A stretch of 64,000 bases of DNA from Candidatus Tayloriibacteriota bacterium (GTDB taxonomy: Bacteria > Patescibacteriota > Minisyncoccia > Phycocordibacterales > PALSA-1337). The stretch covers positions 3,502 to 67,501 of the forward strand of contig JBPOID010000003.1 in assembly GCA_052034805.1 (NCBI GenBank). Direction: 5' to 3'. A model generated the notes under the pieces. It was not told the DNA's origin. It worked only from the letters and a program-made list of their open reading frames with translations, and searched no databases. A program made the translations under genes and the position numbers. Positions within the stretch are counted from its first letter, which is position 1; each line of letters begins with the position of its first letter. Shown in pieces: positions 3-58,363 of this stretch.

Positions 3-230
3 TTCTTAACACCAGTTATATATCCATCTAGTATTGCTGGTAAATATTCATGGATAATGGCTATAAATCCAATGACAGGTGTAATACAGAATGCACGTGC
101 CGCACTTATAGGAACAACACCTATTAATTGGATATTAATACTCATATCATTCATAGCATGTCTAATATTGATGCTGATAGGTATATATGTATTTAAAAAG
201 ATTGAAAGGTTCTTTGCAGATATAATATAA
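3..230 (+). CDS. wzm: ABC-2 type polysaccharide exporter permease (Wzm-like), C-terminal fragment; 5' end lies outside the window
   Basis: Frame-3 translation ...FLTPVIYPSSIAGKYSWIMAINPMTGVIQNARAALIGTTPINWILILISFIACLILMLIGIYVFKKIERFFADII* is the typical hydrophobic C-terminus of ABC-2 permeases. It lies immediately upstream of the Wzt-like ATPase, in classic wzm-wzt order. Confidence 0.7.
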   Translation, partial: FLTPVIYPSSIAGKYSWIMAINPMTGVIQNARAALIGTTPINWILILISFIACLILMLIGIYVFKKIERFFADII

Positions 231-234
231 AAAA

Positions 235-1497
235 ATGGAAAAAGAAACAGTTATAGAAATAAAGAATATAGGTAAAAAATATAGGATTAATCATGAATCT
301 GGTAGATATATTACTTTAAGAGATATTATTACAAACATAATAATTAGTCCTTTACAATTCCTAAAAAAGAAAACAAAACAAATAGTTGGGTTTGAAAAGA
401 AAGAAGAATTCTGGGCACTTAAAGATGTAAGTTTTAATGTAAAAAGAGGAGAAGTTATTGGGATCATAGGTAGAAATGGCGCTGGTAAATCTACCCTTCT
501 TAAAATACTTTCACAAATTACCCCACCAACTATAGGTGAAATAAAAATAGATGGAAAAGTTAGTAGTTTACTAGAAGTCGGAACAGGTTTTCATCCAGAA
601 CTTACTGGACGTGAAAATGTCTTTCTAAATGGCGCAATATTAGGAATGACAAAAAAAGAAATGGTAAGAAAATTCAATAAAATAGTAGAATTTGCTGGCG
701 TAGAGAAATTCATAGATACTCCAGTAAAATACTATTCTAGCGGTATGTATGTAAGACTAGCTTTCTCTGTAGCAGCACATATGGATCCAGATATACTTAT
801 AATAGATGAGGTCTTGGCTGTTGGAGATGCTGAATTCCAAAAAAGATGTTTAGAGAAAATGGAAGATATAACAAAAAGAGAGAAAAGGACTATATTATTT
901 GTAAGTCATAATCTAGCTACGGTACAAAAACTATGTAGTAGAGTTGTTCTACTTGAAAATGGTAAAGTAAAAAATATAGGTAATACCAGTAGCATGATAG
1001 ATTATTATTTAAATAATAGAAATGATGAAAAGATAACAAAAACCAATAGTAGTTCATCAAATAGTATTAAACTTACAGGTATTAAAATCTTTAATTCTGA
1101 AGATTCAACAAGAATTAAAAGTGGTGATAAATTAAAAATAATACTTTCTTACAGTAGTAATATTAAAACAGACATAGAGAATGTAAGAGTATACATAACT
1201 GTAATAAGTGCCCTATCAGGTAAAAATGTATTAAGACTAGATAGTTATGTAACATCAAAATCACTTGGTAATAAAATAACTCCTAATGGTGAAATAATCT
1301 GCGAGACAGATAATGCAAATCTTATAGATGGAGAATACTTAATCAATACAGATTTATGTGTTAATAATATAAATGTAGATCATATAGAAAAAGCTACAGG
1401 ATTTAATATTGAACCTAATAAAGAGAGGTTTGATTATAAAGAAGATCCAGACAAGAATGCATGCGATAATATGATAAAATTTAGCTTCAGACAATAG
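235..1497 (+). CDS. wzt: Polysaccharide/O-antigen ABC exporter ATP-binding protein (Wzt-like) with C-terminal carbohydrate-binding extension
   Basis: Walker A GRNGAGKSTLLKIL, signature YSSGMYVRLAF, Walker B ILIIDEVLAVGD, H-loop SHN. About 170 aa of non-ABC C-terminal domain, as in Wzt proteins that recognise a modified glycan terminus. Confidence 0.9.
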   Translation: MEKETVIEIKNIGKKYRINHESGRYITLRDIITNIIISPLQFLKKKTKQIVGFEKKEEFWALKDVSFNVKRGEVIGIIGRNGAGKSTLLKILSQITPPTIGEIKIDGKVSSLLEVGTGFHPELTGRENVFLNGAILGMTKKEMVRKFNKIVEFAGVEKFIDTPVKYYSSGMYVRLAFSVAAHMDPDILIIDEVLAVGDAEFQKRCLEKMEDITKREKRTILFVSHNLATVQKLCSRVVLLENGKVKNIGNTSSMIDYYLNNRNDEKITKTNSSSSNSIKLTGIKIFNSEDSTRIKSGDKLKIILSYSSNIKTDIENVRVYITVISALSGKNVLRLDSYVTSKSLGNKITPNGEIICETDNANLIDGEYLINTDLCVNNINVDHIEKATGFNIEPNKERFDYKEDPDKNACDNMIKFSFRQ

Positions 1498-1501: not shown

Positions 1502-4500
1502 ATGCATAAAAATGAAAATAAATTAATAAGCGTATGCATACCAACATATGAAATGTATGGTCATGGTCATATTTTCCTAGAACATAGTTTACAAATCTTA
1601 TCTAAACAAACATTCAAAAAATTTAATGTAATTATATCCGATTATTCAAAAGATAATCTTATAGAAAATGTCTGTAAAAAATATACTAATATATTAGATA
1701 TAAAATATATTAAGAATAATAATCCCGTAATCGGCATGTCATTGAATATAAATAATTCAATCTTTAATGCTGATGGTGATTTAATAAAAATATTATTTCT
1801 AGACGATTTTCTATATGATGATAAATCCCTAGAGAAAATAGCTAATAATTTCAATTTAAAAAAAGATAAGTGGATGGTAACAGCTTGTATACATTCAAAT
1901 GATGGTAAGACTTTTGAAAATATTCATTACCCACAAAATAATAAAAATATTCACCTAGGTAAAAATACCATAGGCTCACCTTCTGTATTGACCATCAGAA
2001 AAGACTGTTTGATAGATTTTGATACTAATTTAAAATGGTTTGTAGATTGTGACTATTATAAAAGATGTTATGAGAAATATGGTAATCCGAAAATATTAAA
2101 TGATATTACAGTAGTTATAAGAACTGGTGAACATCAAATAACAAACACTGAAGTAAATAATGAATTAAAAATAAAAGAATCAAATTATTTGAGAGAAAAA
2201 TATAATATTAAAAATAAAAGACTAAATTTAAACAATGTTACATTGGTTGCAGTATCAGGGATAAATCCAAAAAATGCAGTAAAAGCATTAGAAATATCAA
2301 TGGAAAATATCGATTATCATGAGATTTTACTTATTTCACACTATTCACCAGAAAATCTAGACAAAAGAATAACTTTCAAAAAATGTAAGGATACAGAATT
2401 AATGAATCGAGATCCAAAAAACACTAATGATTATAGTAAATTCATAGCTTATGATTTATATAAATATATAAATAGTGATTATGTACTTATAGTACATAAC
2501 GATGCTTATGTATTAAGACCACATAAATGGGATAATAGATTTTATGATTATGATTATATAGGTGCACCATGGCCTCCAAATATACATTATACAAATGAAG
2601 GGGAAAATATAAGAGTTGGTAATGGTGGATTTTCATTTCGAAGTAAAAAGATGTTAAATGCTCTTAATGAATTGAAATTACCTTTTACAGACAACGGTAC
2701 CGGATATTATAATGAAGATGGAATCATATGTGTATATTATAGAAAAAAGTTAGAAGAATACGGGATTAAATATGCTCCAGTATCAATAGCATCAATTTTT
2801 AGCCATGAATTAGATTGTAATGATTCAGAATCTAAACCATTTGGATTTCATAATAACAAAAAAGTTATACCATTTTTATTCTTACTTGTATTTAATATAA
2901 ATAAATTCAGAAAAAACAAAAAAATGATGATCAAAAATTATATAAAGAAAATCAAGATAATAGTTTGGCCCATAGTAAAAACTCTTAGAGCAATAAAAAA
3001 GAAAAAAAGGGAAACTTTTAATAAAAAAAGTATATCTAGATTATTTCCAAACGGAATAAAGACGATGATTGAAATAGGTACAGCAAACGGTGATGATACT
3101 TTAGATTTTCTAAAATTATTTAATTCTAAAGACTTTAAAATATTCGGCTTTGAACCAGAACCTAAAAATATTGAAATAATAAAAAATAATATAGAAGATC
3201 CTCGTTTCAAATTATTTGAAGGAGTGGTTTCCGATATTGATGGTAAATTAACATTTAATAGATCTAGAAATGATGATCCAAACGGCTTGTCTCTCTCTGG
3301 TTCGATAATGAAGCCTAAAAATCATTTAAAACTATGGAGTTCTATATATTTTGACCAAACAATTGATGTAAAATCAATAACACTTGATACTTTTGTTAAA
3401 GAAAATAATATAGATGAAATAGACTTTATCTGGTGTGATGTACAAGGTGCAGAAGAAAAAGTGATTCTAGGCGGAAAAGAGACTTTTAAAAATAAAGTTA
3501 AATATCTTTATACTGAATATTCTAATGACGAACAATATGAAAATCAGCCAAATAAAAATAAAATACTTAAATTACTTCCTGATTTCGAAATCGTGAAAGA
3601 TTTCGGTACTGATATTCTATTAAGAAATAAAAATATGATTTCTAATCGTTTTGAGAAATATCCAAAACTAACCCTAATAACATCCATATTAATAGTATTC
3701 ATTATATTAGATCTTATAATTGGAAGTATGTTCTTACCTAAAGGAATAAGATCTGATAATCGAGTAGAAAGTCCTTATTTTAATCATACACTTAATGCTA
3801 ATTATAATGGTAAAGATTCATGGACAGCCGGTGAATACCCTTTAATAACAAACAGTTTAGGTTTCAAAGATAGAATTGTAAGAAATATAAATTCAACAAC
3901 AACGAAAGAACGTATAATTTTTATTGGTGATTCTTTTACCGAAGGTATAGGAATACCTTATGAGGAAACATTTGTAGGCTTAATCGATAAAGAATTAGAT
4001 TCAAAAAAATATGAGGTGCTTAATGCTGGAGTAGTATCTTATTCACCCTATATATATTATTTAAAAACAAAATATCTTATAGAACATGGACTAAAATTTA
4101 ATGAATTGGTGGTATTTAATGATATATCTGATGTGCAAGATGAAATAACATATCAAGATTGGAAACCTTCTAATCCAAATCAAATCCAATTAATATGGAA
4201 TAGTATTATAAAGAATACAGATTTCTTCTTAGAACATCATTCATTAATATATTTACACGGCATTAGACCTATTATATTTGGCGTGCAGACAAAAAGAATT
4301 AAAAAAATTTTCCTAGGAGCAAAATCTGATACAGATAAGATAACAGAGAAAGATAAAGAATATCTTAACAATAGAGGACGATGGACATTTGATGATAAGG
4401 TTTATGAAGAATGGGGTAAAAAAGGATTAGATCTTGAGATCAAACACATGAATGAATTATATGAATTATGTAAAAAAAATAATATAAAATTATCAATAGC

Positions 4501-4756
4501 GGTTTATCCTTGGCCAGATCAAATCATAAATAATGATTTATATTCAAGACAGGTTACAGTTTGGGAGAAATTCGCCAAGAATCATAAAATTGATTTCTAT
4601 AACTTATTCCCTATCTTTATTGATAATGGTTTAGAGAAAAGCAAAACTGTAGAAAATTATTTCTTACCACACAATGATGTCCATTGGAATAGTTTCGGAC
4701 ATAGAATAGTTGCAAATGAATGGTTAAGACAATATATTATAAATAATAATAAATAA
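1502..4756 (+). CDS. 1084-aa multidomain glycan-modifying protein: N-terminal GT2-like domain, central GT/DUF domain (GNGGFSFRS motif), FkbM-family SAM methyltransferase domain, one TM helix, C-terminal SGNH/GDSL hydrolase-like domain
   Basis: N-terminus VCIPTYEM...DDF resembles GT2. Residues about 520-690 (MIEIGTANGDDTLDF...FGFEPEPKNIEII...ITLDTF...IDFIWCDVQGAE) match the FkbM methyltransferase family. Hydrophobic helix LTLITSILIVFIILDLIIGSMF. C-terminal IIFIGDSFTEGIG (GDS block) and DVHWNSFGH (DxxH block) match SGNH hydrolases. Confidence 0.65.
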   Translation: MHKNENKLISVCIPTYEMYGHGHIFLEHSLQILSKQTFKKFNVIISDYSKDNLIENVCKKYTNILDIKYIKNNNPVIGMSLNINNSIFNADGDLIKILFLDDFLYDDKSLEKIANNFNLKKDKWMVTACIHSNDGKTFENIHYPQNNKNIHLGKNTIGSPSVLTIRKDCLIDFDTNLKWFVDCDYYKRCYEKYGNPKILNDITVVIRTGEHQITNTEVNNELKIKESNYLREKYNIKNKRLNLNNVTLVAVSGINPKNAVKALEISMENIDYHEILLISHYSPENLDKRITFKKCKDTELMNRDPKNTNDYSKFIAYDLYKYINSDYVLIVHNDAYVLRPHKWDNRFYDYDYIGAPWPPNIHYTNEGENIRVGNGGFSFRSKKMLNALNELKLPFTDNGTGYYNEDGIICVYYRKKLEEYGIKYAPVSIASIFSHELDCNDSESKPFGFHNNKKVIPFLFLLVFNINKFRKNKKMMIKNYIKKIKIIVWPIVKTLRAIKKKKRETFNKKSISRLFPNGIKTMIEIGTANGDDTLDFLKLFNSKDFKIFGFEPEPKNIEIIKNNIEDPRFKLFEGVVSDIDGKLTFNRSRNDDPNGLSLSGSIMKPKNHLKLWSSIYFDQTIDVKSITLDTFVKENNIDEIDFIWCDVQGAEEKVILGGKETFKNKVKYLYTEYSNDEQYENQPNKNKILKLLPDFEIVKDFGTDILLRNKNMISNRFEKYPKLTLITSILIVFIILDLIIGSMFLPKGIRSDNRVESPYFNHTLNANYNGKDSWTAGEYPLITNSLGFKDRIVRNINSTTTKERIIFIGDSFTEGIGIPYEETFVGLIDKELDSKKYEVLNAGVVSYSPYIYYLKTKYLIEHGLKFNELVVFNDISDVQDEITYQDWKPSNPNQIQLIWNSIIKNTDFFLEHHSLIYLHGIRPIIFGVQTKRIKKIFLGAKSDTDKITEKDKEYLNNRGRWTFDDKVYEEWGKKGLDLEIKHMNELYELCKKNNIKLSIAVYPWPDQIINNDLYSRQVTVWEKFAKNHKIDFYNLFPIFIDNGLEKSKTVENYFLPHNDVHWNSFGHRIVANEWLRQYIINNNK

Positions 4757-4757
4757 A

Positions 4758-6581
4758 ATGAATATTCTCGGAATATCAGCTTATTATCACGATAGTGCAG
4801 CCTGTTTAATACAGAATGGTAAAATAGTAGCAGCTGCTCAAGAAGAACGTTTTACTAGAAAAAAACATGATGATAAATTTCCTAAAAATGCTGTTAATTA
4901 TTGTCTTGAGCAAGGTAAAATACATATATCTGATATAGATTATGTTGTCTTTTACGAAAAGCCCTTCTTAAAATTTGAAAGAATATTAGAAACATATTTA
5001 TCTGTGGCACCATTTGGTATTTCTTCTTTCATAAAAGCTATACCAACATGGTTGAAAAATAAATTATGGCTTAGATTAAATATAGCAAACGAATTAAATT
5101 ATAAAGGAAAAATACTCTTTACAGAACATCACGAATCACATGCCGGATCTGCATTTTTCCCTTCACCATTTGAAAGAGCGGCTTTCTTAACTCTTGATGG
5201 TGTAGGAGAACATACAACAACAAGTTATGGAGTAGGAGAAAAAAATAAAATAAAAATATTATCTGAATTAAGTTTTCCACATTCATTAGGAATGCTTTAT
5301 TCAGCTTTTACTTATTATACTGGTTTTAAAGTTAATTCTGGTGAATATAAAATTATGGGATTGGCACCATATGGTGAATCAAAATATGTAGATATTATCT
5401 TAGAAAATCTGATTGATTTAAAAGAAGATGGTTCTTTCCATTTAAATATGGATTATTTCAATTTTACCAAAGGTTTAACAATGACAAATAATAAATTTTC
5501 AAAATTATTTGGTGGAGATCCTAGAAAACCAGAATCCCCTCTTACTCAAAAAGAAATGGATATAGCCAAATCAATTCAAGATGTCACAGATATTATTTTA
5601 ATAAAAATAGCAAAACATATAAAAAAAGTTACCGGAGAAACAAATCTAGTACTTGCCGGTGGTGTAGCTTTGAATTGTGTTAGTAATGGTAAACTCTTAC
5701 GTTCTAATATATTCAAAAATATATGGGTGCAACCAGCATCAGGTGACGCTGGTGGAGCTTTAGGATCAGCTCTATTTGTATGGTATCAATATTTAAATAA
5801 TAAAAGAGATGTAGATGAAATAAATGATTCAATGAATGGTTCTTATTTAGGACCAGAATATTCTAATTCAGAAATTAAAAAATATTTAGAGACCAATTCT
5901 ATTCCTCACAGAGAACTTTCAGATGAAGATATTCCAGAAATAATATCTGATTTGATAAATAAACAAGGAGTAATCGGCTGGTTTCAAGGACGTATGGAAT
6001 TCGGACCAAGAGCTTTAGGTGCTCGTTCAATAATAGGTGATGCTAGATCTCCGAAGATGCAAGACACTATGAATCTAAAAATAAAATTTCGAGAAAGCTT
6101 TAGACCTTTTGCACCCTCAGTATTGAGAGAGAAAGTATCTGATTATTTCGAAATAGAAAAAAACTATAATAGTCCTTATATGCTTATTGTGGCTAATATT
6201 AGAAAAGAGCACCGTAAAAAAACAGTAGAAAATAAAAATAGACTTTTTGGTATTGATCTTCTGAATGTTGTACGTTCTGATATACCAGCAATAACACATG
6301 TAGATTATTCAGCTAGACTACAAACAGTGGACGATTCAACAAATCCTCTTTATTATAGAATGATATCAGCTTTCAATAGAAAATATAATTGTCCAGTTAT
6401 AATAAATACATCTTTTAACGTACGAGGTGAACCCATAGTGTGTACACCGAAAGATGCTTATATGTGTTTTATGAGAACAAATATAGATTATCTTATAATG
6501 GGCAATTATCTTGTAGATAAAAGTAAACAAGAAAAGATTGATAATGATTCCGATTGGAAAAGAGAATTTGTATTAGATTAA
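4758..6581 (+). CDS. Carbamoyltransferase, NodU/CmcH/SxtI family
   Basis: N-terminus MNILGISAYYHDSAACLIQNGKIVAAAQEERFTRKKHDDKFP and the overall 607-aa length are typical of YrdC/Kae1-like O-carbamoyltransferases. Confidence 0.88.
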   Translation: MNILGISAYYHDSAACLIQNGKIVAAAQEERFTRKKHDDKFPKNAVNYCLEQGKIHISDIDYVVFYEKPFLKFERILETYLSVAPFGISSFIKAIPTWLKNKLWLRLNIANELNYKGKILFTEHHESHAGSAFFPSPFERAAFLTLDGVGEHTTTSYGVGEKNKIKILSELSFPHSLGMLYSAFTYYTGFKVNSGEYKIMGLAPYGESKYVDIILENLIDLKEDGSFHLNMDYFNFTKGLTMTNNKFSKLFGGDPRKPESPLTQKEMDIAKSIQDVTDIILIKIAKHIKKVTGETNLVLAGGVALNCVSNGKLLRSNIFKNIWVQPASGDAGGALGSALFVWYQYLNNKRDVDEINDSMNGSYLGPEYSNSEIKKYLETNSIPHRELSDEDIPEIISDLINKQGVIGWFQGRMEFGPRALGARSIIGDARSPKMQDTMNLKIKFRESFRPFAPSVLREKVSDYFEIEKNYNSPYMLIVANIRKEHRKKTVENKNRLFGIDLLNVVRSDIPAITHVDYSARLQTVDDSTNPLYYRMISAFNRKYNCPVIINTSFNVRGEPIVCTPKDAYMCFMRTNIDYLIMGNYLVDKSKQEKIDNDSDWKREFVLD

Positions 6582-6591
6582 TAAAATAATT

Positions 6592-7014
6592 ATGATCGAA
6601 GAATTCAAAAAAATACAAAGCAATAAAAAAGATTTGAGAAACTTTGGCTTGTTAATTGGATCTATTCTATTTTTATTTGGTGTATATATCTATTACAAGC
6701 ATAATGTAAATTATATTTATATAATATCTCTCGGTTTACTGCTTATAATATTTGGATTAATAGTACCTAAAATTCTTAAACCATTTCAGAAAATATGGAT
6801 GGGTACTGCAATAATATTAGGTTTTATTATTACACATGTGATTCTTATTTTATTCTTTTATCTATGTGTTACACCACTTTCGCTTATTGCAAAAATATTT
6901 AATAAAAAATTCTCTGATTTATCATTCAAAAATAAGAAAAATAAATCTAATACATATTGGGAATGTAGAAAAGACAATGAAGACAGTGAAAATCGACTAG
7001 AAAAACAGTTTTAG
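6592..7014 (+). CDS. SxtJ-like small membrane protein (partner of carbamoyltransferases)
   Basis: 140 aa with 3 predicted TM helices, directly downstream of the carbamoyltransferase, as in sxtI-sxtJ-sxtK-type arrangements. Confidence 0.5.
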   Translation: MIEEFKKIQSNKKDLRNFGLLIGSILFLFGVYIYYKHNVNYIYIISLGLLLIIFGLIVPKILKPFQKIWMGTAIILGFIITHVILILFFYLCVTPLSLIAKIFNKKFSDLSFKNKKNKSNTYWECRKDNEDSENRLEKQF

Positions 7015-7038
7015 TTAATATATAATAGCTGATAAATT

Positions 7039-7197
7039 ATGAATAAAATCAACATATTAAAAGAATTATATAGTTTCTTAAAAGCAAGAAAAAAGTGGTG
7101 GCTTATACCAATAGCCATATTCTTGATCATTCTTAGTGCTTTTATATTTCTCTCACATGGTTCTGTACTTGCACCTTTCGTCTATACCCTATTCTAA
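7039..7197 (+). CDS. SxtK-like / DUF5989-family small membrane protein; 52 aa, not in the supplied ORF track
   Basis: ATG at 7039, TAA at 7195. Translation MNKINILKELYSFLKARKKWWLIPIAIFLIILSAFIFLSHGSVLAPFVYTLF carries the characteristic RKKWWL(I/L)P ... APF(I/V)YTLF pattern of small proteins found next to SxtJ/carbamoyltransferase genes. Confidence 0.6.
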   Translation: MNKINILKELYSFLKARKKWWLIPIAIFLIILSAFIFLSHGSVLAPFVYTLF

Positions 7198-7208: not shown

Positions 7209-8249
7209 ATGATCTGTAATGAATTATATAATGGTCAAGGATTAGGAAATCAATTATGGAATTATGTTTTAACCAGAATTATAGCGGATAAAAAAAATAT
7301 AGAATATTCTATTCTGGGAAAAGAAAAATTTAAAGGAGAAGAATTTATTGATATTGATTTTGGCCAGACCTTATCTTGTGGTTTTTCCCCTGAGGGAGGA
7401 CCACCTCATAGATTGCCGAAAGGAATTAAGAATTATTATAGAGAACGCAGAGAAAATCTATTAGATACTAAGATAGATATATCTAGAACTGATTATAAAT
7501 TATTTGATTTACCATTAAATACAAAATTCGACGGTAATTGTCAATCAACAAAATATCTAGAGGGGTATCGAGATAAAATACTATCATGGATAAAAATAAA
7601 AGATAATTACAAAATACAAAAATTAGTAGAAAATAATTGTGTAATACACATACGTTGTGGTGATTTTAAATCAATTAGAGATGTATTTTTACCAAAAGAA
7701 TACTACAAAATGTCTATGGATTATATTAGAAATATAAATCCTGAGGTTAAATTCTATTGCGTAACAGATGAAAAAGAGGAAGCAGAGAAAATATTATCAG
7801 GAATTGAAGTAATAGGTTCTTCTATAGTTAATACTCATGATAATAAAAGAGCATCTCATCATAAAGGTGGAAATATTGCTATTGATTTTTCTATATTAAT
7901 GAATGCAAAATATCTAATAATACCTAATTCTAGTTTCTCTTGGTGGGCAGCATATTTAAATACAAAGAAAAAATTAGTAATAGCTCCAAAATATTGGGCG
8001 GCATATAATAAATCTGATGGTTATTGGTCTACCGAAGATATCATAACTAATGACTTCTTATATATGGACAGAGAAGGTAAAATATATACAGCAAAACAAT
8101 GTTCTGAAGAAAAAGAAGAATATGAATCAAAACATCAAGAAATATTCGTGGAGGGAGATTTGGATAAAAGGAAAATAGTAAGTAAATCAAAAATAATTAA
8201 AAAAAAGATTAAAGATTTTTACTATAATAAAATCAGAAAATATATATGA
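7209..8249 (+). CDS. GT11-family (alpha-1,2-fucosyltransferase-like) glycosyltransferase
   Basis: N-terminal GQGLGNQLWNY, central HIRCGDF (HxRRGD-type motif) and C-terminal SSFSWWAAYLN match the three GT11 motifs. Confidence 0.65.
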   Translation: MICNELYNGQGLGNQLWNYVLTRIIADKKNIEYSILGKEKFKGEEFIDIDFGQTLSCGFSPEGGPPHRLPKGIKNYYRERRENLLDTKIDISRTDYKLFDLPLNTKFDGNCQSTKYLEGYRDKILSWIKIKDNYKIQKLVENNCVIHIRCGDFKSIRDVFLPKEYYKMSMDYIRNINPEVKFYCVTDEKEEAEKILSGIEVIGSSIVNTHDNKRASHHKGGNIAIDFSILMNAKYLIIPNSSFSWWAAYLNTKKKLVIAPKYWAAYNKSDGYWSTEDIITNDFLYMDREGKIYTAKQCSEEKEEYESKHQEIFVEGDLDKRKIVSKSKIIKKKIKDFYYNKIRKYI

Positions 8250-9358
8250 AAGTAAAGATATTTACGATCGCAAATATAAGACCAGATTTTATAGAAATTC
8301 AATATGAATCGATTAAAAAGTTTCTAAAAGATAAAGACTTTGAATTTATTGTCTACAATAATTCATTTAACAATAAAAAAAGATATGAGTTAATTGAAAA
8401 TATATGTAGAAAATTGAAAATAGAAAATATAAAAGTAAATCATTATAGAGATAATAAAAATGATGCTAGTTTAATAGTAGCTGATAGTTTAAATTATATT
8501 TGGAATAAATATCTAAAATATGAAAAAGATATTTTATTGTATATCGATTCAGATATGTTCTTGATAAAAGATACATCAGTGGAAGAATTAATGAGAAATT
8601 ATGATTTCGCTTTTATATCGAACTATCGTGGCAAAGACTTTGAAATAAAGTATCCATGGACTGGTTTTATGATATTTAATATGAATACATTACCCAATCC
8701 AATAGAATTAAAATGGGATACAGGAATAATATTTGGGAATAGAGTTGATGTGGGTGGACTCAATCATTATTATCTATCAAAATATGAAAATAGGATAAGA
8801 ATATTAAATCTGGAGATGTGGACATTAAATGATATAGATTATCGTGATAATAATATTAAAAATATAAAAGGTAGTATAAATGGTAATGCTCAATTATCTT
8901 TATCTATTGATAAAGATAATAAATTGATTGAATTTAATATAAATGATATACATTTATCAAGAAATAGATTATTCCCTTATCAGAAAGAAAATGAAAAATA
9001 TGGAGAAATAGTGAAAAATAATTATATAGAATTCGAAAAATATATTAAAGATAATAATCTAAATTTCCCTAAGCCTATATATATAGATTTGATAAAGACT
9101 TATGAATCAAAATTTAATGATTGTTTTATATTACATTATAAATCAGGCAGTAATTGGTTAAACTTTTCAACAAAAGAATATAATCATAAAAAAACTGAGG
9201 CATTAGTTTATCTTATGAAAAAATTAGGTGTAAATATTACAAAAAACAATATTTATGATGATAATGATCTTTATACTGATGATAAAAAATATATTTATTC
9301 AAGTAAAATGAAATTATATAATTTATATAGAAGAATAATAAATAAAATAATAAAATGA
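8246..9358 (+). CDS. Hypothetical protein, possible GT-A-fold glycosyltransferase (DSD motif)
   Basis: Long ORF co-directional with and overlapping neighbours by 4 nt. Contains YIDSDMF, resembling a DxD motif. No confident family assignment. Confidence 0.4.
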   Translation: MKVKIFTIANIRPDFIEIQYESIKKFLKDKDFEFIVYNNSFNNKKRYELIENICRKLKIENIKVNHYRDNKNDASLIVADSLNYIWNKYLKYEKDILLYIDSDMFLIKDTSVEELMRNYDFAFISNYRGKDFEIKYPWTGFMIFNMNTLPNPIELKWDTGIIFGNRVDVGGLNHYYLSKYENRIRILNLEMWTLNDIDYRDNNIKNIKGSINGNAQLSLSIDKDNKLIEFNINDIHLSRNRLFPYQKENEKYGEIVKNNYIEFEKYIKDNNLNFPKPIYIDLIKTYESKFNDCFILHYKSGSNWLNFSTKEYNHKKTEALVYLMKKLGVNITKNNIYDDNDLYTDDKKYIYSSKMKLYNLYRRIINKIIK

Positions 9359-10152
9359 ATAAAACATACGATATATTTTCATTTTTCAATGAATTAGATA
9401 TGTTAGAAATAAGATTGAATATCTTAGATAAATTTGTAGATTATTTCGTAATAGTAGAAGCAACAGAAACATTTACAGGTCAATCAAAGCCTCTTTATTA
9501 TAAAGAAAACAAAGAGAGATTTTCTAAATGGAATCATAAAATAATACATTATATAGTAGATGATTATCCAAATGATAAAAATATATGCGAATTAGCAAAT
9601 AAAAGTCCTAATGTACCTAAAGATGGACCAATACATTGGCATAGAGAATTTTATCAAAAAGAAAGTATAAAAAAAGCACTTATAGGATTAAATGATGAGG
9701 ATGTATGTTTTGTAGGAGATGTAGATGAGATATGGAATTATAATAAAGATTATCACCTATTAGATAATGATATATTTAAATTGAGATTAGAAGTATATTC
9801 ATACTATTTCAACAATCATTCAAATGAAGAATTTGCTGGAACAATAGTTACAAAATATAAAAATATAAAAAATAATTGCTTAAATCATCTCAGAACTCAT
9901 AATTTAAAATATTTAGACAATGGTGGTTGGCATTTCACTAATATTGGTGGATTAGAACAAATAAAGAAAAAATTAAATGCTTCTTATACGGAAGATAGTT
10001 ATAATACAGAAGATGTAAGAAAAAATCTAGAAAAAAGATTGAATGAAAATAAGGATTATATGGGAAGAAAATTCAAATTCACAATAAGCGAAAAAAACCT
10101 ACCTGTGTATTTATTAGAAAATAAAGAAAAGTATAGTAAACTCTTTAAATAG
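9355..10152 (+). CDS. GT17-like (GnT-III-like) glycosyltransferase
   Basis: N-terminus DIFSFFNELDMLEIRLNIL...VIVEATETFTGQSKPLYY matches the conserved start of Glyco_transf_17 family proteins. Confidence 0.6.
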   Translation: MNKTYDIFSFFNELDMLEIRLNILDKFVDYFVIVEATETFTGQSKPLYYKENKERFSKWNHKIIHYIVDDYPNDKNICELANKSPNVPKDGPIHWHREFYQKESIKKALIGLNDEDVCFVGDVDEIWNYNKDYHLLDNDIFKLRLEVYSYYFNNHSNEEFAGTIVTKYKNIKNNCLNHLRTHNLKYLDNGGWHFTNIGGLEQIKKKLNASYTEDSYNTEDVRKNLEKRLNENKDYMGRKFKFTISEKNLPVYLLENKEKYSKLFK

Positions 10153-25010: not shown

Positions 25011-26588
25011 TTATTTCAATTTGGCTATAATAAACATATTATCTCTTAGATTTATAGGTATGGATAAATGACCTAGTTTAGGATTCTTATTCATAAATGA
25101 AGCAATATTAAAGAAAAATCTAAATTTCAACCATTTACCAAGAGTGAGAAATACATATTCTAATGTGAATTTCTTTCCTATTGTAGTTGAAACAATAACC
25201 TCAAGACCTTCTTTATCTAGGAGTTTAGATATTGTATCTCTATTAAAATAATGAATATGTTCTGGTGGAACAATAAGATGCCATTTTTTACCTAGAATAC
25301 GAGCATAAAGACTTCCGGAATCGGGTGTATTTATTACAACAAGACCATTCTTTGTTAACATTTTCTTTGATTTATTTATAAGTATTCTAGGATCATCTAC
25401 ATGCTCTATCACATCAAGCATAGTGATAATATCAAATTTTTTATTTTTATTATCAAAATCTTCTATAGTTCCATTAAATATATTTAAACCTTTTTCAATA
25501 CCCTTTCTTGAAGCATCAGATGAAACTTCTATTCCATAGACTTCATAATCAAAATCTTTTGCAATCTTCATAAAATATCCAGTAGCGGCACCTATATCCA
25601 ATAGACTTTTATTATTTTTCTTATTCAAAATACCCTCTATTCTATTCATATAACCGACAAAGACATTCTTCATAGCTTCTTTATCCTTATCATAATCAAC
25701 ATAACCGAAACCATGCGAAGCTCCGGAAAAATAATCCTTATTGTAAATATCTTTATTATCTTTAGGTAATGGATGTATTTTCAATATTCCACATTCTTTG
25801 CATTTATATATATCATGACCATTCTTATTAGAATATTTTTTATGAATAGTTTTCTTATCACATATGAGACAATATATATCTTTTATAGGTTTACGAAAGA
25901 TAAGTCTCCAAGGAGCTTTTATACCTTCACCTATTATATGATTTGATATCTTTGATTCGCCTCCAATTCTATTTTTAAAAATAATTGGAATTTCAGTCAT
26001 TTTCGCTCCAGATTTATATAAACAATATTTCAATTCTATAAGAAAAGCATAACCAGAACTTCCAATACTATCGAGATCAATACGTCTCAATTTATCAGTA
26101 GAAATAGTACCAAAACCTGCCGTTATATCATTTAAAGGTATGCGAGTTATAGTACGAGTATACATATTACCGAAGAAACTCAATAGTCTCCTCCATAATT
26201 CCCAACCCTCTGTTCCACCACCTCTTATATATCTAGAACCAACTATAAAATCATATTTATCTCTTTTTTGAAGCATAATAGGTATATATTTCGGATCATG
26301 AGAAAAATCCGCATCCATTGTAATAACAGTAGAAACTTCAGGATTCTTTAATACTTCTATAAATGCAGATGTATAGGCCTTACCTAGTCCTTCTTTTCCC
26401 TTTCTTCTCATAATTGAGAGATTAGGGAATTCATTCATTAGTCTCTCTACTATTTTCTGTGTTCCATCTGGAGAATTATCATCAACAATCAAAATATTTA
26501 TATCTGGATTATGTTCAAAAACTTTTCTGACTATAATCTCGACGGTATCTTTTTCATTATATGTCGGTATAATAACAATATTTTTCAT
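25011..26588 (-). CDS. Fusion protein: GT2 polyprenyl-phosphate sugar synthase (DPM1/GtrB-like) + zinc ribbon + class I SAM methyltransferase
   Basis: N-terminus IVIIPTYNEKDTVEIIVRKVFEHNPDINILIVDDNSPDGTQ (DPM1-like). Middle CLICDKK...YKCKECG zinc ribbon. C-terminus LLDIGAATGYFMKIA...LTKNGLVVINTPD methyltransferase. Confidence 0.8.
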   Translation of the reverse strand: MKNIVIIPTYNEKDTVEIIVRKVFEHNPDINILIVDDNSPDGTQKIVERLMNEFPNLSIMRRKGKEGLGKAYTSAFIEVLKNPEVSTVITMDADFSHDPKYIPIMLQKRDKYDFIVGSRYIRGGGTEGWELWRRLLSFFGNMYTRTITRIPLNDITAGFGTISTDKLRRIDLDSIGSSGYAFLIELKYCLYKSGAKMTEIPIIFKNRIGGESKISNHIIGEGIKAPWRLIFRKPIKDIYCLICDKKTIHKKYSNKNGHDIYKCKECGILKIHPLPKDNKDIYNKDYFSGASHGFGYVDYDKDKEAMKNVFVGYMNRIEGILNKKNNKSLLDIGAATGYFMKIAKDFDYEVYGIEVSSDASRKGIEKGLNIFNGTIEDFDNKNKKFDIITMLDVIEHVDDPRILINKSKKMLTKNGLVVINTPDSGSLYARILGKKWHLIVPPEHIHYFNRDTISKLLDKEGLEVIVSTTIGKKFTLEYVFLTLGKWLKFRFFFNIASFMNKNPKLGHLSIPINLRDNMFIIAKLK

Positions 26589-26624: not shown

Positions 26625-28544
26625 CTATTTCTTCTTTAAGAATTGATATTTACCAATAGAATTATACAAAACATAGCCATTATGGCTCAATTCATTTATT
26701 GATTTTATATAATCAGGATTAGAATTTATAGCAATAATATCTGATAGTTTATTAGTTATTCTATTCAACGACTTTTCTCCAACTTTTATGGTCTCTGTAA
26801 TATCCATAAATTGTGAATAATTTTCACTCTTTATAAATGTTACAAGTTCTGGAGCTTGGTAAACAAATATTTCTTTATTTGAAGGTATTTCTCTTATAAA
26901 ATTCTCAAGTGATTTACTTTGATCACTATTTTTATAATGAGATATCCAGCTACCAAAAACTAATTGATAGAATTGCATAATTATTAAAATAATAACTATT
27001 ACTAAAGACAATATTTTGGCTTTATTATTATTTAATATATTTGTAGATAAATAATACAAATTATATGGAAGCATAATAATTGTAATAAATTCTCCCAAAA
27101 AGAAATACCTATAATAACCAACTGTGCGAAGATAAGCTAAAATTATTAGTATATTAAAAATAAATAGAATAATTTCAGATAATTTTATATTATCTTTCCT
27201 CTTTATTCTTATATATAAGACCAAGGTCCAGACAAGAGTAAGTATAAGAGTATAAATAGGTTGAACTTCTGTTATAAATCTTTTCATATTAAGGATAATA
27301 GATTTTGTCAGATCTGTACTATGAGGATTAGCATAGATAGATAATATATATCCCAATGATTCACCATGGAATTGGAATATAATCCATAAAAATATAGGGA
27401 TAATAAAAGCAATTAAACCAAAAAGAAAATTAATAATAAAGATTTTTTTATTATTTAAAATAAATATTTTATTTTTATAAAGATAATATATTAAGACAAT
27501 AAAGAAAGCCGGCAGAATCAATATAAAAATAGGTTTTGTAACTACAACAATCCCTATCAATAAAGAAGTTATAATTGTATTGAATATCTTTCTTTTATTT
27601 GTAGATACGGGATCAATATATATTCTATAAGTAAATTCTAAACTCAACATAGATAAAAATAAGAAAAATAATCCTGGAATTTCACCTAATACATTCTTTC
27701 CATGACCATAGAGTGGTGGAAAAGTTATTATTAAAAACAAAGTGATAATAGAAATCCAAATATTATTTGAAATACTTTTCCTAAACCATAATAAAGAAAA
27801 AATGATTAATAAAATTATAAAAATGACCATAACAATACGGGCGTGAAATAAATCATTAGCAAATAAATCAAAAGATATAGCTATGGGTAAGGTTACTGGA
27901 TAACTAGTGGTTACATAGCCAGAAGATACAATAGTCTGTGGATCTATACGAATACCAGAATATCCTGAAACAGAAAGATTCCTAGCTGTTTGAATGATAA
28001 TACCCTCATCCATCCATGTCGGTGGTGATTCTGTAAGATTAGAAAGAGAAAAATATAATAAGAAAATAATACCTATAGTAAATAATATTATTATAAATAT
28101 TTTTCTTAAATTATATTTAAAATCTATTGTGTTTACAGATGAATCATTTCTCTTAAATATAAATAATCTATATATGAAAAAAGATTCAATAGCGACTATT
28201 ATTCCAGAGATAATTTGAGCTATTACTACTGGTTTTAGAAACAAAAATCCATTAACTATATTAGAAGATAATAATAAATGAATTATAGTTGTATTTATAA
28301 AAACATTTATAATCGAAACAATTAAATACATTAGAGCTTGATGATGTGTTTTCCCGTGATCAGCATCTTTGAATGTCCAATATTTTTGCAGAGAAAAACT
28401 AACACCGAATGCAATAATAAAAGCAATATTAACACTTAAAATATAATGTATTCCTAAATTATCTAAAAAATGAAGAGAAATAAGATCAACGAGTGCTGCC
28501 GTTCCACCTGAAATAATATATTTAATTATAGTGAATATATCCAT
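26625..28544 (-). CDS. Fusion membrane protein: GtrA-like flippase domain + GT-C-fold (PMT/ArnT-like) polyprenyl-phosphate-sugar-dependent glycosyltransferase
   Basis: N-terminal ~130 aa IIKYIISGGTAALVDLISLHFL... with 4 TM helices matches the GtrA family. It is followed by ~500 aa with more than 10 TM helices typical of GT-C enzymes (GT39/GT83-like). Confidence 0.6.
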   Translation of the reverse strand: MDIFTIIKYIISGGTAALVDLISLHFLDNLGIHYILSVNIAFIIAFGVSFSLQKYWTFKDADHGKTHHQALMYLIVSIINVFINTTIIHLLLSSNIVNGFLFLKPVVIAQIISGIIVAIESFFIYRLFIFKRNDSSVNTIDFKYNLRKIFIIILFTIGIIFLLYFSLSNLTESPPTWMDEGIIIQTARNLSVSGYSGIRIDPQTIVSSGYVTTSYPVTLPIAISFDLFANDLFHARIVMVIFIILLIIFSLLWFRKSISNNIWISIITLFLIITFPPLYGHGKNVLGEIPGLFFLFLSMLSLEFTYRIYIDPVSTNKRKIFNTIITSLLIGIVVVTKPIFILILPAFFIVLIYYLYKNKIFILNNKKIFIINFLFGLIAFIIPIFLWIIFQFHGESLGYILSIYANPHSTDLTKSIILNMKRFITEVQPIYTLILTLVWTLVLYIRIKRKDNIKLSEIILFIFNILIILAYLRTVGYYRYFFLGEFITIIMLPYNLYYLSTNILNNNKAKILSLVIVIILIIMQFYQLVFGSWISHYKNSDQSKSLENFIREIPSNKEIFVYQAPELVTFIKSENYSQFMDITETIKVGEKSLNRITNKLSDIIAINSNPDYIKSINELSHNGYVLYNSIGKYQFLKKK

Positions 28545-40270: not shown

Positions 40271-41560
40271 CTATTTTAAAGCATTATTTTCTATAATCTC
40301 TTTCTTTAAGAAGATCGAACCTATATACCTTATAAGCAATATTCCACTTGTAGATAGAAATATCCCTATAGCCCATCCAGCTATAACATCTGATGCCCAA
40401 TGAACATTGAGTATTATTCTACTTAACCCTATTAGGAATGAACATAAAAAACATAAAACTATTAATGATTCTCTTGTAATCCAATTCTTTATTTTGGGAG
40501 CTAATATATAGGCTAAAGATAAAAAGAAAGCGGCAGAGATTGCGGCGTGACCGCTAGGGAAACTTGGATCTGTTAATATTTGAAAAGCATTATTTGGTCT
40601 AGAACGTAAAAATAAGTCTTTAAGCAAAACAACAGATCCAGCTGTGGATATTACAGAAAAAAGCATTATAGCTCCCCTTCTCCATTTATGTTTATACATA
40701 AAATAAAGACCTATAACAGTGCCTATAGATATAATCGGTATTGTACCCCCGATTGTACTAATAAAATGAAATATTTTTATTGATAATTGATTCGCATACT
40801 CTACAGATAATAGATTTGCCCATATATCAAAATTCTTCATAAAAGAACTTATAGATAAACCGTCTTGTATAGTCTTTGCCAATACCCATACAGAAAGTAG
40901 ATTAAGTATTAATACAAAAATTTCATATTTTTTGAATATATGGAAACGTAAATTTACAAAACGATAACCCCATAATATAAGTATTGAAGCTATAAAAGCC
41001 ACCAAGAAAAATTCTCCGAGATATTTCGCACCTATATTATAACTAGCACCAAAGACATATCCAACCATAACAGAAAGATATACCCATAGTGAACCACCTA
41101 AAATATTATAAAACCAGAATGTTTTTGGATGTATGCCATTTGCACCTACCATATAAGGTATAAGTGGACGAGTAACCGGACTAAATTTACCTATTATAAT
41201 AGCCTTGCCTGTATGATTATCTATAATATTTTTTGCTTTATCTATATGATGTTCTTTCAGGAAAACATATTTAGTCAATCTTTGCAAAAATGGATAACCT
41301 TTTTTCTTACCAAAAAGATATCCTATTATATCTGCAATAGCCGAAGCGGTAATACATATAATTAAAACTATAAAAAGATTAAGTATTCCAAATTTTGCTA
41401 AAAATCCACTACAAATTATAGCGATATGACCAGGTATAAATGATCCTAATATAGGTAAACCTTCAAAAAAGACAATAATGAATAAAAGCCAATATCCTCC
41501 AGTAGCTATCAGTTCAGGAAAATTCTGTATAATATGCGAAAAATATGTAGTTAAATGCAT
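40271..41560 (-). CDS. DedA-family membrane domain fused to PAP2-family phosphatase (undecaprenyl-diphosphate phosphatase-like)
   Basis: N-terminal half GYWLLFIIVFFEGLPILGSFIPG (DedA/SNARE-associated). C-terminal half PSGHAAISAAFF and SRIILNVHWASDV (PAP2 motifs PSGH and SRxxxxxHxxxD). Confidence 0.8.
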   Translation of the reverse strand: MHLTTYFSHIIQNFPELIATGGYWLLFIIVFFEGLPILGSFIPGHIAIICSGFLAKFGILNLFIVLIICITASAIADIIGYLFGKKKGYPFLQRLTKYVFLKEHHIDKAKNIIDNHTGKAIIIGKFSPVTRPLIPYMVGANGIHPKTFWFYNILGGSLWVYLSVMVGYVFGASYNIGAKYLGEFFLVAFIASILILWGYRFVNLRFHIFKKYEIFVLILNLLSVWVLAKTIQDGLSISSFMKNFDIWANLLSVEYANQLSIKIFHFISTIGGTIPIISIGTVIGLYFMYKHKWRRGAIMLFSVISTAGSVVLLKDLFLRSRPNNAFQILTDPSFPSGHAAISAAFFLSLAYILAPKIKNWITRESLIVLCFLCSFLIGLSRIILNVHWASDVIAGWAIGIFLSTSGILLIRYIGSIFLKKEIIENNALK

Positions 41561-51439: not shown

Positions 51440-53060
51440 TCAAATTGAAATAATCCACGAGCAGCTTCCGCTACCCGTGCCTTGTTACGACTTACTCCCT
51501 GTCATTGAGCTTACCTTAGGCCGCGACAAGCGCGGACTTCGGGTACTCCCAACTCCCTTGAGTTGACGGGCGGTGAGTACAAGACTTGAGAACGTATTCA
51601 CCTCGGTATAGCTGACCCGAGATTACTAGCAATTCCGGTTTCATGAGGTCGAGTTGCAGACCTCAATCCAAACTGACGCACCCTTTATAAGGATTTGCTC
51701 CGCCTTTTATCGGCATTGCTTCCCGTTGTAGGTGCGATTGTATCGCGTGTGTAGCCCAGGGTATCAGAGGGACATGCTGACCTGGCGTCATCCTCACCTT
51801 CCTCCCACGACGCAGAGCACAATTATATATTGAAAAATGAATCTCTAAGAAAATTGGTTCGCTTCTCTTGCGGTCGGGAGACCTTTTCGGTCCGCTTTCG
51901 CTCTCGAAAAGGCTCCCTCCCCGGAAGCTCACACAATTTTCTAAATATAATTCCGCGCTATGTCGTGGGCAGTCTCGCCTGACAAATATAACAGGCAACG
52001 AGGGTTGCGTTCGTTACCCCACTGAAGGGAACAACTCAAGCCACGAACTGACGACGGCCATGCATCACCTGCCTAACTGTCTTGCGACGACCAAAGTTTC
52101 TTCTGGTCTTCAGCTAGGTTTCAAACCCTGGTAAGGTTCTTCGTTTGTCATCGAATTAAACCACATGATCCACTGCTTGTGCAAGTCCCCGTCTATTCCT
52201 TTGAGTTTTAACCTTGCGGTCGTACTACCCAGGCGCTTCTCTTAACGCGTTAGCTAAGCCTCTCAGAGGGTCGATACTCCGAAAAGCGAGAGAAGATCGT
52301 TTAGGGCGTGGACTACTGGGGTATCTAATCCCATTCGCGACCCACGCTTTCATGTTTCAGTGTCAGGAGTGCTCCAGTTTCTTGCCTTCGCTTTTGGTGT
52401 TCCCCATAATATCAACGCATTTCACCGCTACACTATGAGTTCCAGAAACCCCTCGCATCCTCTAGTTGTACCGTTTCCTTTGCATGTCCCCGGTTAAGCC
52501 GAAGAATTTAACAAAAGACTAATACAACCACCTACACATCCTTTACGCCCAATGATTCCGGATAACGCTTGAGGCACTCGTATTACCGCTGCTGCTGGCA
52601 CGAGTTTAGCAACCTCTTATTCGCCAAGTACTATCAATAAACTTTCTCCCTGGCAAAAGGTTTTTACGTCCCTAGGGACTTCATCAACCACGCGGCGTCG
52701 CTCCGTCAGGCTTTCGCCCATTGCGGAAGATTCTCGACTGCGGCCACCCGTAGGTGTATGGACCGTCTCTCAGTTCCATCGGTGGGGGTCACCCTCTCAG
52801 GTCCCCTAAGCGTCTTAGCCTTGGTAGGCCATTACCCTACCAACTAGCTGATACTGAACAGGCCCATCCAAAAGCGATAAATCTTTACTCTTTCGAGACC
52901 ATCAAGTATTAACTCATCTTTCGATGAGGTATCCCTGACTCTTGGGTTGGTACCTGCTTATTACTACCTCGTCTGCCACTGTGTATTGCTACACCGTTTG
53001 ACTTGCATGCCTTATCCACGCCGCCAGCGTTCATCCTGAGCTAGGATCAAACTCTTAACT
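51440..53060 (-). rRNA. rrs: 16S ribosomal RNA (about 1.62 kb, with internal expansion and atypical 3' tail; boundaries approximate)
   Basis: Reverse complement contains the 5' end AGAGTTTGATCCTAGCTCAGGATGAACGCTGGCGG (53035..53055), the 806R site GGACTACTGGGGTATCTAATCC, decoding-centre GTACTCACCGCCCGTCA, the 1492 region AAGTCGTAACAAGG, and helix 45 with GGAA loop. No 23S/5S follows. Confidence 0.92.
51806..51968 (-). other. ~160-nt AT-rich expansion/insertion in 16S helix 40 region
   Basis: Conserved flanks ...GACGCCAGGTCAGCATG/GGAGGAAGGTGAGGATGAC and ...GAGACTGCCCACGAC are separated by ~165 nt, against ~12 nt (CCGGTGACAAACC) in typical 16S. The flanks CCACGAC...GTCGTGG can pair to extend the helix. 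Confidence 0.6.
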
Positions 53061-53064
53061 AAAA

Positions 53065-57955: not shown

Positions 57956-57979
57956 TTTCTAATAAACCTCTATTGTCAA

Positions 57980-58363
57980 TTATTGGCCGATCTTTAGAGT
58001 TGCAACTTCAACTATTATATTAGACTTATCATCATATATAAGTGCTGTCTTGGATACAGGATAGACTATAAGATAATCACCTACCTTTGCTTTAACGAAA
58101 AATGGATTATTAACAAAAGGTTTAGTATCAGAAATCATAGCCACTACTGGTTTCTCATTTGTTGGTAAAGCTATTAATTTACCAACTTTATCTATAAGCA
58201 TAGTTACTTTTGCTTCATTTTCTTTATCTTGATTCTGTTTTAGAGAAACGGTTTTACTGTAGAAATAAAATAAAGATACTGATGCAATAATTATAAGTAT
58301 GATTATCACTAGAATTGGTTTAGTGAGAAACTTTGTTTTTGTATTGTTTGTATTAGGTTCCAT
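57980..58363 (-). CDS. Small N-terminally membrane-anchored protein, paralog A of a tandem triplet
   Basis: 127 aa. TM ILVIIILIIIASVSLFYF, then conserved LIALPTNEKPVVAMISDTKPFVNNPFFVKAKVGDYLIVYP...EVATL. Confidence 0.55.
   Translation of the reverse strand: MEPNTNNTKTKFLTKPILVIIILIIIASVSLFYFYSKTVSLKQNQDKENEAKVTMLIDKVGKLIALPTNEKPVVAMISDTKPFVNNPFFVKAKVGDYLIVYPVSKTALIYDDKSNIIVEVATLKIGQ

Follow-up and report, generated by a model that had tools for sequence, protein, structure and literature searches.

A 1084-residue protein encoded behind wzm-wzt in a Candidatus Tayloriibacteriota genome joins a putative glycan synthase to a membrane-anchored SGNH-fold module

The stretch of DNA analyzed here, hereafter the window, comprises 64,000 nucleotides from a Candidatus Tayloriibacteriota bacterium (GenBank assembly GCA_052034805.1, contig JBPOID010000003.1, positions 3,502 to 67,501 of the forward strand) and encodes, behind the wzm and wzt genes of an ATP-binding cassette (ABC) transporter, a protein of 1084 residues with four modules: a GT2-family glycosyltransferase, a DUF5672 domain, an FkbM-family methyltransferase and, after a single predicted transmembrane (TM) helix, a domain of the SGNH hydrolase fold. 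As a whole this is probably best explained as the product of a fusion of neighboring genes in an ABC-transporter-dependent (wzm/wzt) surface-glycan locus, in which a cytoplasmic synthase (residues 1-710) has acquired an SGNH enzyme (residues 711-1084) that would face outward. The modules themselves all come from known superfamilies. What is new is the joining of synthase and SGNH module, which is restricted to a single narrow lineage, and we know of no precedent for the addition of a TM-anchored extracytoplasmic SGNH domain to a synthase of this kind.

Alignment with its relatives shows the protein to be a natural fusion in which the end of one gene has run into the start of its neighbor, because sister loci carry the same region as two abutting genes in the same order. 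In L003 and L004 a 717-residue three-module gene is followed, through an ATGA stop/start overlap and in a different frame, by a 372-residue SGNH gene whose product is 53% identical over its whole length to window residues 711-1078 (E 2e-144). In L173 a 714-residue gene (58% identical) is separated from a 370-residue gene (62% identical) by TAA, one nucleotide and ATG, and in both L003 and L173 the order continues as in the window with genes for a carbamoyltransferase, SxtJ, DUF5989, GT11 and GT17. About ten proteins of approximately 700 residues possess the GT2-DUF5672-FkbM part only (42-60% identity over residues 1-710); the stand-alone forms P0003-P0006 and P0008-P0010 share the modules and the GT11/GT17 neighbors of the window protein but lack the TM helix and the SGNH domain. 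The SGNH half has its own stand-alone family (P0121-P0240, LA_2486-like esterases included), separate proteins of about 370 residues that are 38-62% identical over residues 711-1084 and have the same N-terminal anchor and GDS...N...DxH residues. In the alignment the three-module homologs end with ...LLRNKNL and a stop codon precisely where the window protein runs on, and the stand-alone SGNH proteins start with M..NRFEK; the two genes would have been joined by a short indel that restored the frame where stop and start meet. The junction of a second fused locus, L002, reads NKNLVKSNRFEK and contains no ATG, GTG or TTG, and therefore its SGNH module can only arise within the fusion. Fused forms are rare: among 5.8 billion clustered proteins the full length is found only in P0001 (with its cluster-mate P0241) and P0002, and an exhaustive HMMER search of 1.84 billion 50%-identity representatives gave a single cluster spanning residues 1-1084 among the best 150 matches listed, in keeping with a preliminary description of this DNA, made from the sequence alone, which was aware of no described protein with the same architecture.

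The 1084-residue open reading frame (ORF) is real, and mis-assembly or a frameshift is excluded so far as sequence data permit. A Logan contig from SRR34217545 matches the window over 9204 nt with 0 mismatches; a 99%-identical variant of the same length, with 10 substitutions, no indels and the same neighbors, is present in ENA ERZ4216102 (on a 55.8-kb contig of 32x coverage) and in Logan SRR12487013; and the 71%-identical ortholog in GCA_964925275.1 (L002) has exactly 1084 residues, the identity to the window protein being 66% in GT2, 71% in DUF5672, 84% in FkbM, 68% in the TM region and 73% in SGNH. The preliminary description had itself named a chimeric assembly as one thing that would undo its proposal, and all that speaks for an artefact, be it a wrong join or an overlooked frameshift, is the general expectation that very long multi-domain ORFs of metagenome-assembled genomes may prove chimeric; with the same junction recovered in the assemblies of at least three sequencing runs that differ at the strain level, and again in the equal-length ortholog, this reading can be dismissed almost entirely. 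A fusion might also be real but neutral: the SGNH protein would be made mainly on its own, by translation from M711 (an internal ATG), or the fusion would be cleaved, and the locus would behave as the split loci do. In favor of this, the stand-alone proteins begin at the position of M711 in the alignment, and the A-rich sequence before M711 resembles other gene starts in the genome. However, L002 has kept the frame and 73% SGNH identity without any start codon at the junction, and the 99% variant keeps the frame too, which makes a merely formal fusion unlikely.

The gene starts 4 nt behind the end of wzt, and the complete wzm, cut at the window edge, is a 274-residue ABC2_membrane gene at the same place on the overlapping public contig L001; the wzt product scores 83.2 bits with ABC_tran and matches TagH/Wzt-like NCBIfam models. 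This position directly after wzm-wzt, and the succession of GT2, glycosyltransferase-like and FkbM regions, had been read correctly in the preliminary description: the three regions score above their Pfam or NCBIfam cutoffs, the second of them being DUF5672. The GT2 module is recognized by Glycos_transf_2 (PF00535) over residues 10-147 with 32.4 bits (cutoff 23.3); its D47 and D101-D102 (FLDD, a candidate DxD motif) are invariant in nine homologs, and its match in the Protein Data Bank (PDB), to GalT1 (5hea), is weak. DUF5672 (PF18922) covers residues 306-450 with 77.9 bits (cutoff 24.4), and its AlphaFold model (predicted local distance difference test score, pLDDT, 92.9) adopts a GT-A fold. 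The best Foldseek match in the PDB is the GT6 enzyme BoGT6a (E 7e-7, template modeling score 0.55), with further matches to SpsA (GT2), the WrtF fucosyltransferase, GTA/GTB, EXTL2 and GT64; at E 7e-7 to 4e-5 and template modeling scores of about 0.5-0.55 these similarities are moderate. Together with the invariant residues D334, D351, Y352, G354, A355, G373, N374 and H450, the modeled fold suggests that DUF5672 is a second GT-A glycosyltransferase; a literature search on DUF5672 returned no functional study, only an unrelated full-text match. The FkbM module matches Methyltransf_21/FkbM (PF05050) over residues 524-693 with 63.4 bits (cutoff 22.7) and TIGR01444 with 83 bits (cutoff 37.7), and its S-adenosylmethionine (SAM) motif E524-I-G-x-A-x-G-x-D532-T is invariant across the homologs aligned.

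The C-terminal region does not reach the gathering score of the Pfam model Lipase_GDSL_2 (14.7 against 32.9 bits), and because of this failure the assignment to the SGNH fold needed separate support. Residues 709-1084 retrieve more than 2400 homologs, some of them with PF13472 or PF16822 (ALGX) matches; a profile of 121 family members matches solved SGNH hydrolases in the PDB, such as 4hf7 at E 1.5e-6; and the NCBIfam LA_2486 SGNH model matches the module at E 4e-8. The AlphaFold model (pLDDT 92.6) gives target-normalized Foldseek template modeling scores of 0.6-0.73 to SGNH esterases, CgnD being the best match and acetyl-xylan esterases, TesA and PatB being among the others. G809-D-S811 and H1061 do not vary among the 121 sequences, and conservation is 90% or more at N841, G815/G817 and D1059; block V reads G-D-V-H-W-N (D1059-x-H1061), with DxH spacing in place of the canonical DxxH. 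The SGNH domain of the preliminary description is thus upheld by family profile, fold and conserved catalytic residues, the failed GDSL model aside, and its TM helix by hydropathy.

The TM helix is the only segment of the protein with a Kyte-Doolittle hydropathy above 1.6 (residues 723-741, the next-best segment reaching 0.88), and AlphaFold models it as one long helix (model residues 13-36). A second TM helix at residues 446-464 was considered and rejected, the hydropathy there being 0.88 and the hydrophobic run only about 12 residues long; the linker (residues 456-515), at 0.86-0.88, is likewise too weakly hydrophobic for a TM helix. We infer that residues 1-710 are cytoplasmic because GT2, DUF5672 and FkbM depend on nucleotide sugars and SAM; with a single TM helix after them, the three transferase modules should remain inside and the SGNH domain should lie beyond the membrane, on its outer side. 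This topology fits the stand-alone SGNH proteins, which have a short basic N-terminal tail followed by an anchor.

The closest characterized analog of residues 1-710 is probably WsaE from the S-layer glycan system of Geobacillus stearothermophilus NRS 2004/3a, which the synthase half most resembles by description. WsaE combines a methyltransferase with two glycosyltransferase domains and is encoded directly after wzm-wzt in the slg cluster, which also includes rml genes and the Wzy_C oligosaccharyltransferase WsaB; the WsaE methyltransferase is proposed to cap and terminate the chain (PMC2943079). The two systems have in common the position after wzm-wzt, two glycosyltransferases and an O-methyltransferase in one polypeptide, and rml and Wzy_C genes nearby, rml/epimerase genes following in the window. 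In contrast, the WsaE methyltransferase is N-terminal (reversed order), its domains belong to families other than FkbM and DUF5672, and it is soluble, with neither a TM helix nor an SGNH domain. Just upstream of the window and divergent from wzm, L001 encodes on its minus strand (383-2719) a 778-residue Wzy_C protein (66 bits) with a weak C-terminal TPR match, which resembles the PglL/WsfB-type O-oligosaccharyltransferases of protein glycosylation and hints that the finished glycan is transferred to protein or another acceptor in a cell without lipopolysaccharide.

WbbB (Klebsiella O12/Raoultella) and WbdD (Escherichia coli O8/O9a), multi-domain proteins of the ABC-dependent O-antigen pathway, likewise couple polymerization to termination, the terminal modification being read by the carbohydrate-binding module of Wzt. 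WbbB consists of a GT99 Kdo transferase with GT1/GT25 and WbdD of a kinase with a class-I methyltransferase. In both, chain length is set by long coiled coils, whereas the linker of the window protein is only about 60 residues long; an extracytoplasmic domain is lacking in both. A phmmer search of residues 1-710 against all PDB chains at E<=1 gave no match to WbdD or WbbB, only to GalT1-type GT2 enzymes. The three-module part is a new combination on the WsaE/WbbB/WbdD theme.

Downstream of the fusion gene lie genes for a NodU/CmcH-type O-carbamoyltransferase, a small SxtJ-family membrane protein and a DUF5989 protein, hereafter the cassette, and it is with these genes, not with the synthase, that the SGNH module co-varies. 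Among some 24 loci with a GT2-DUF5672 core, SGNH is present only alongside carbamoyltransferase and SxtJ (window/L001, L002 and L003/L004; L173 was found separately), and the three-module loci L005, L006 and L011 lack SGNH as well as carbamoyltransferase and SxtJ and have GT11 directly behind the core gene. An unannotated 352-residue gene of L005 was considered as a diverged SGNH gene and as the counterpart of the 370-residue gene of unassigned family in the window, and is neither. Conversely, SGNH, carbamoyltransferase, SxtJ and DUF5989 occur without the synthase in the Paceibacterota loci L009/L010, and SGNH, carbamoyltransferase and DUF5989 do so in Bacteroidetes (L008). Of 80 SGNH-anchored metagenome loci, 11 have the carbamoyltransferase (0/80 controls; Fisher p 7e-4) and 16 have at least one cassette gene (0/80 controls; Fisher p 1e-5), and in every close SGNH relative (>=48% identity) with readable flanks the carbamoyltransferase gene is immediately downstream. 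The gene order is permuted between loci, with carbamoyltransferase-SGNH-SxtJ-DUF5989 in L111, SxtJ-DUF5989-carbamoyltransferase-SGNH in L125 and SGNH-SxtJ-DUF5989 in L138; conserved content in permuted order is typical of functionally coupled genes. From these comparisons the "fourth module" is best read as the fused first gene of the adjacent cassette. The set of SGNH, carbamoyltransferase, SxtJ and DUF5989 (window 3626-7197) recurs, its order permuted, in several phyla, cassette-bearing loci being L003, L009, L111, L113, L125, L138, L151, L164, L166, L169 and L173, and the DUF5989 ORF is uncalled in the public annotation of the identical contigs L001, L171 and L172. In SGNH loci lacking the carbamoyltransferase no consistent partner was found; the contexts are heterogeneous and include an epimerase with a WecA-like glycosyltransferase, a histidine kinase, Sel1 and FG-GAP proteins, and NAD(P)HX repair genes.

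The same gene content is known from the saxitoxin clusters of cyanobacteria, in which sxtI, sxtJ, sxtK and sxtL are encoded consecutively and the GDSL-type lipase SxtL is proposed to be a decarbamoylase (PMC2679770, PMC2684587). Both sets comprise an O-carbamoyltransferase (about 610 residues), SxtJ (about 135 residues), SxtK (about 54 residues) and a GDSL-type lipase, though the saxitoxin genes act on an alkaloid, not a glycan, their lipase is unfused, and SxtL corresponds to the SGNH module by gene content. The roles of SxtJ and SxtK were listed as unknown in 2009 (PMC2679770, PMC2684587). CgnD, the best structural match of the SGNH module, is an SGNH-like hydrolase whose gene cluster likewise includes a carbamoyltransferase gene (PMC10070186), which we treat as a lead only; searches of the literature on SxtJ with polysaccharide and on carbamoylated O-antigen clusters gave nothing useful.

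In the scheme that we favor, the two putative GT-A domains of the synthase half would, by analogy with WsaE, WbbB and WbdD, extend a lipid-linked glycan together with the GT11 and GT17 partners, after which FkbM would O-methylate a sugar, plausibly as a non-reducing-end cap read by the C-terminal domain of Wzt before export; the C-terminal extension of Wzt makes such a signal plausible. The second part would be a type-II-anchored SGNH enzyme, ordinarily a stand-alone protein of about 370 residues encoded by the first gene of the cassette. Its TM helix would tether the synthase to the inner membrane face and display outside an SGNH domain that is catalytically intact to judge by its conserved residues, and this domain most likely acts on an ester or carbamate group of the exported glycan, either removing it by hydrolysis (editing) or transferring it, in concert with the carbamoyltransferase, SxtJ and DUF5989. 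The selective value of the fusion may be just membrane tethering and stoichiometric coupling. Several observations weigh against this scheme. The Wzt_C match that would mark the cap-reading domain (residues 271-397 of Wzt) is marginal at 30.6 bits against a cutoff of 30.4, and several other methyltransferases in the island could make the cap; a long coiled-coil ruler like that of WbdD or WbbB is not evident, though no coiled-coil predictor was run; the topology is drawn from hydropathy and the cytoplasmic nature of the substrates; M711 could be an internal start in the window strain, whose genome offers no Shine-Dalgarno signals to judge by; and about 80% of the loci of the wider SGNH family are without the cassette, only about 20% being linked to it.

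Two other accounts of the SGNH module have to be set against this scheme. The preliminary description compared the protein with the multi-domain ABC-pathway chain terminators WbdD and WbbB, an apt comparison, and went on to suggest that one polypeptide may polymerize, methyl-cap and O-acyl-modify the glycan. A cytoplasmic assembly line of this kind, with the four modules acting in turn on the nascent chain until it is acylated or de-acylated before export, would agree with the presence of all four on one polypeptide directly behind wzm-wzt and with the purifying selection on each (66-84% identity to L002). However, the only TM helix sits between FkbM and SGNH and would place them on opposite membrane faces, the SGNH protein is stand-alone and signal-anchored in more than 2400 homologs, three-module genes occur without it, and it follows the cassette, not the synthase. 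Nor is there an acyl donor system: no MBOAT or AT3 partner was found among the ORFs scanned in the island (1-32.5 kb, most ORFs of at least 100 residues, Pfam), which argues against classical O-acetylation of the Alg, Pat or Oat type. AlgJ/AlgX, PatB, OatA-C and DltD do share with the module an SGNH-like fold and a Ser/His/Asp triad, several of them are anchored outside and they act on exported glycopolymers, but they need such a partner and their similarity is weak (AlgJ E 1.7e-3, PatB Foldseek rank 41). A single assembly line is thus very unlikely. The other account would make SGNH, carbamoyltransferase, SxtJ and DUF5989 a trans-membrane relay of the Dlt or Alg type, the SGNH protein being not an esterase but the transferase that adds the carbamoyl group outside the cell. 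The retention of the four-gene set across phyla in permuted order favors it, as do the AlgJ profile similarity, weak as it is, and the PF16822 matches of some family members, and the Dlt system offers a parallel in outline, with an adenylating enzyme in the cytoplasm, small proteins in the membrane and an SGNH-like protein anchored to it (DltA, DltB, DltX and DltD). On the other hand, SxtJ (three TM helices) and DUF5989 (one) are far smaller than MBOAT/AT3 channels, NodU/CmcH-type enzymes transfer carbamoyl directly onto a bound acceptor, nothing points to a carbamoyl carrier, and most SGNH family loci do without the cassette; we consider a relay quite unlikely.

Beyond the favored fusion of a synthase with a cassette gene, the SGNH/carbamoyltransferase/SxtJ/DUF5989 set might be a widespread four-component machine that works across the membrane to add or edit the carbamoyl groups of surface glycans and from which sxtI-J-K-L evolved, the fusion serving as a "Rosetta stone" for its physical coupling to an ABC-pathway synthase/terminator. 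We regard this wider idea as unlikely; if it is true, SxtJ, SxtK and SxtL would for the first time have roles open to testing. Current concepts stay as they are unless the chemistry of the cassette is demonstrated. The split and fused forms do tie the TM-SGNH family to the carbamoyltransferase-SxtJ-SxtK set, the locus shows multi-domain ABC-pathway glycan synthases gaining parts by fusion with neighbors, and the resulting polypeptide would cross the membrane, with its biosynthetic modules on the inner side and a modifying module on the outer.

The DUF5672-containing synthase core belongs to a glycan locus that is conserved in many Patescibacteria; to our knowledge, the surface glycans of these bacteria are almost unstudied. 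The order GT2+DUF5672, GT11, GT17 is found, with or without FkbM, in more than 20 loci, mostly from Patescibacteria metagenome bins (labeled Nomura-, Vogel-, Kerfeld-, Paceibacterota- and Saccharibacteria), in many of which wzt is just upstream; from these labels the low-GC host would probably be placed in the Patescibacteria. The block (L012-L036) also occurs in a few Proteobacteria and Verrucomicrobia, and the C-terminal partner of GT2+DUF5672 varies by lineage among FkbM, a spermine-synthase-like methyltransferase, an epimerase and DUF3431. One 5.7-kb contig labeled archaeal (L011, MTER01000057.1, Candidatus Altiarchaeales archaeon A3) carries wzt, GT2-DUF5672-FkbM, GT11 and GT17, about 60% identical to the window; the contig was probably mis-binned or horizontally transferred, and an archaeal origin was rejected in view of the short contig and its bacterial wzt-GT11-GT17 order. 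DUF5672 itself is commonest in proteins of about 760 residues from Betaproteobacteria/Casimicrobiaceae, with many TPRs, a SEC-C motif and often a GT9 (heptosyltransferase-family) domain (P0023-P0120), an architecture quite unlike that of the window protein. The coordinates of the fusion gene, its modules and its neighbors are collected in Table 1.

Table 1. Features of the fusion gene and the adjoining genes (window positions)
Feature	Position	Strand	Basis
wzm 3' end (ABC-2 permease), last 75 codons, cut at window edge	3..227	+	frame-3 translation open until stop at 227
wzt: ABC ATPase with C-terminal Wzt_C (carbohydrate-binding-type) extension	235..1497	+	Pfam, NCBIfam
Four-module fusion ORF, 1084 aa	1502..4756	+	uninterrupted ATG-started frame
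Module 1: GT2-family glycosyltransferase (putative GT-A), aa 1-235, D101-D102 = candidate DxD	1502..2206	+	Pfam, alignment
Module 2: DUF5672 domain, aa 236-455, second GT-A-fold putative glycosyltransferase	2207..2866	+	Pfam, AlphaFold 2, Foldseek
Basic, poorly conserved linker, aa 456-515 (about 60 aa)	2867..3046	+	42% identity to L002 ortholog
Module 3: FkbM-family SAM-dependent methyltransferase, aa 516-708	3047..3625	+	Pfam, TIGR01444
Fusion junction, M711 = probable former SGNH start codon	3632..3634	+	alignment with split homologs
Single predicted TM helix, aa 723-741	3668..3724	+	Kyte-Doolittle 2.71
Module 4: SGNH-fold hydrolase/transferase-like, aa 746-1084, predicted extracytoplasmic	3737..4753	+	family profile, AlphaFold 2, Foldseek
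NodU/CmcH-type O-carbamoyltransferase (sxtI-like)	4758..6581	+	Carbam_trans_N 328 bits, Carbam_trans_C 243 bits
SxtJ-family small membrane protein, 3 predicted TM helices	6592..7014	+	PF19588 29.4 bits (cutoff 24.4), hydropathy
DUF5989 (SxtK-like), 52 aa, single TM	7039..7197	+	PF19451 75.6 bits (cutoff 27)
GT11-like, unknown 370-aa and GT17-like genes	7209..10152	+	Pfam; conserved partners of GT2-DUF5672 gene

Elsewhere in the window (GC about 26%), and still in the glycan island, a second glycosyltransferase-methyltransferase fusion of 525 residues (25011-26588, minus strand; GT2 91 bits, Methyltransf_23 101 bits) is another candidate capping enzyme. Next to it, a 639-residue protein (26625-28544, minus strand) has an N-terminal GtrA/DPMS TM domain followed by about 500 residues without a family match. 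The N-terminal half of a 429-residue protein (40271-41560, minus strand) matches DedA/UptA undecaprenyl-phosphate transporter models, and this protein may bear on how the glycan island recycles its lipid carrier. No Shine-Dalgarno-like motifs were found upstream of about 48 gene starts in the window; the upstream regions are A/T-rich and many have TATAAT-like hexamers no farther than about 10 nt from the ATG, which suggests leaderless or non-Shine-Dalgarno initiation. The window also carries genes for RNase J, GroES/EL and two-component systems, and a complete bacterial 16S rRNA gene (51443-53062, minus strand) that, at about 1620 nt against a 1533-position model, has a probable insertion; there is no 23S rRNA gene beside it, and the rRNA genes are therefore unlinked. 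Beyond it lies a run of large ORFs on the minus strand (1516, 455, 420, 384 and 296 residues, with three of about 130; 53348-63796) without Pfam matches save a cohesin domain and weak Ig-like matches, which may encode cell-surface or appendage proteins.

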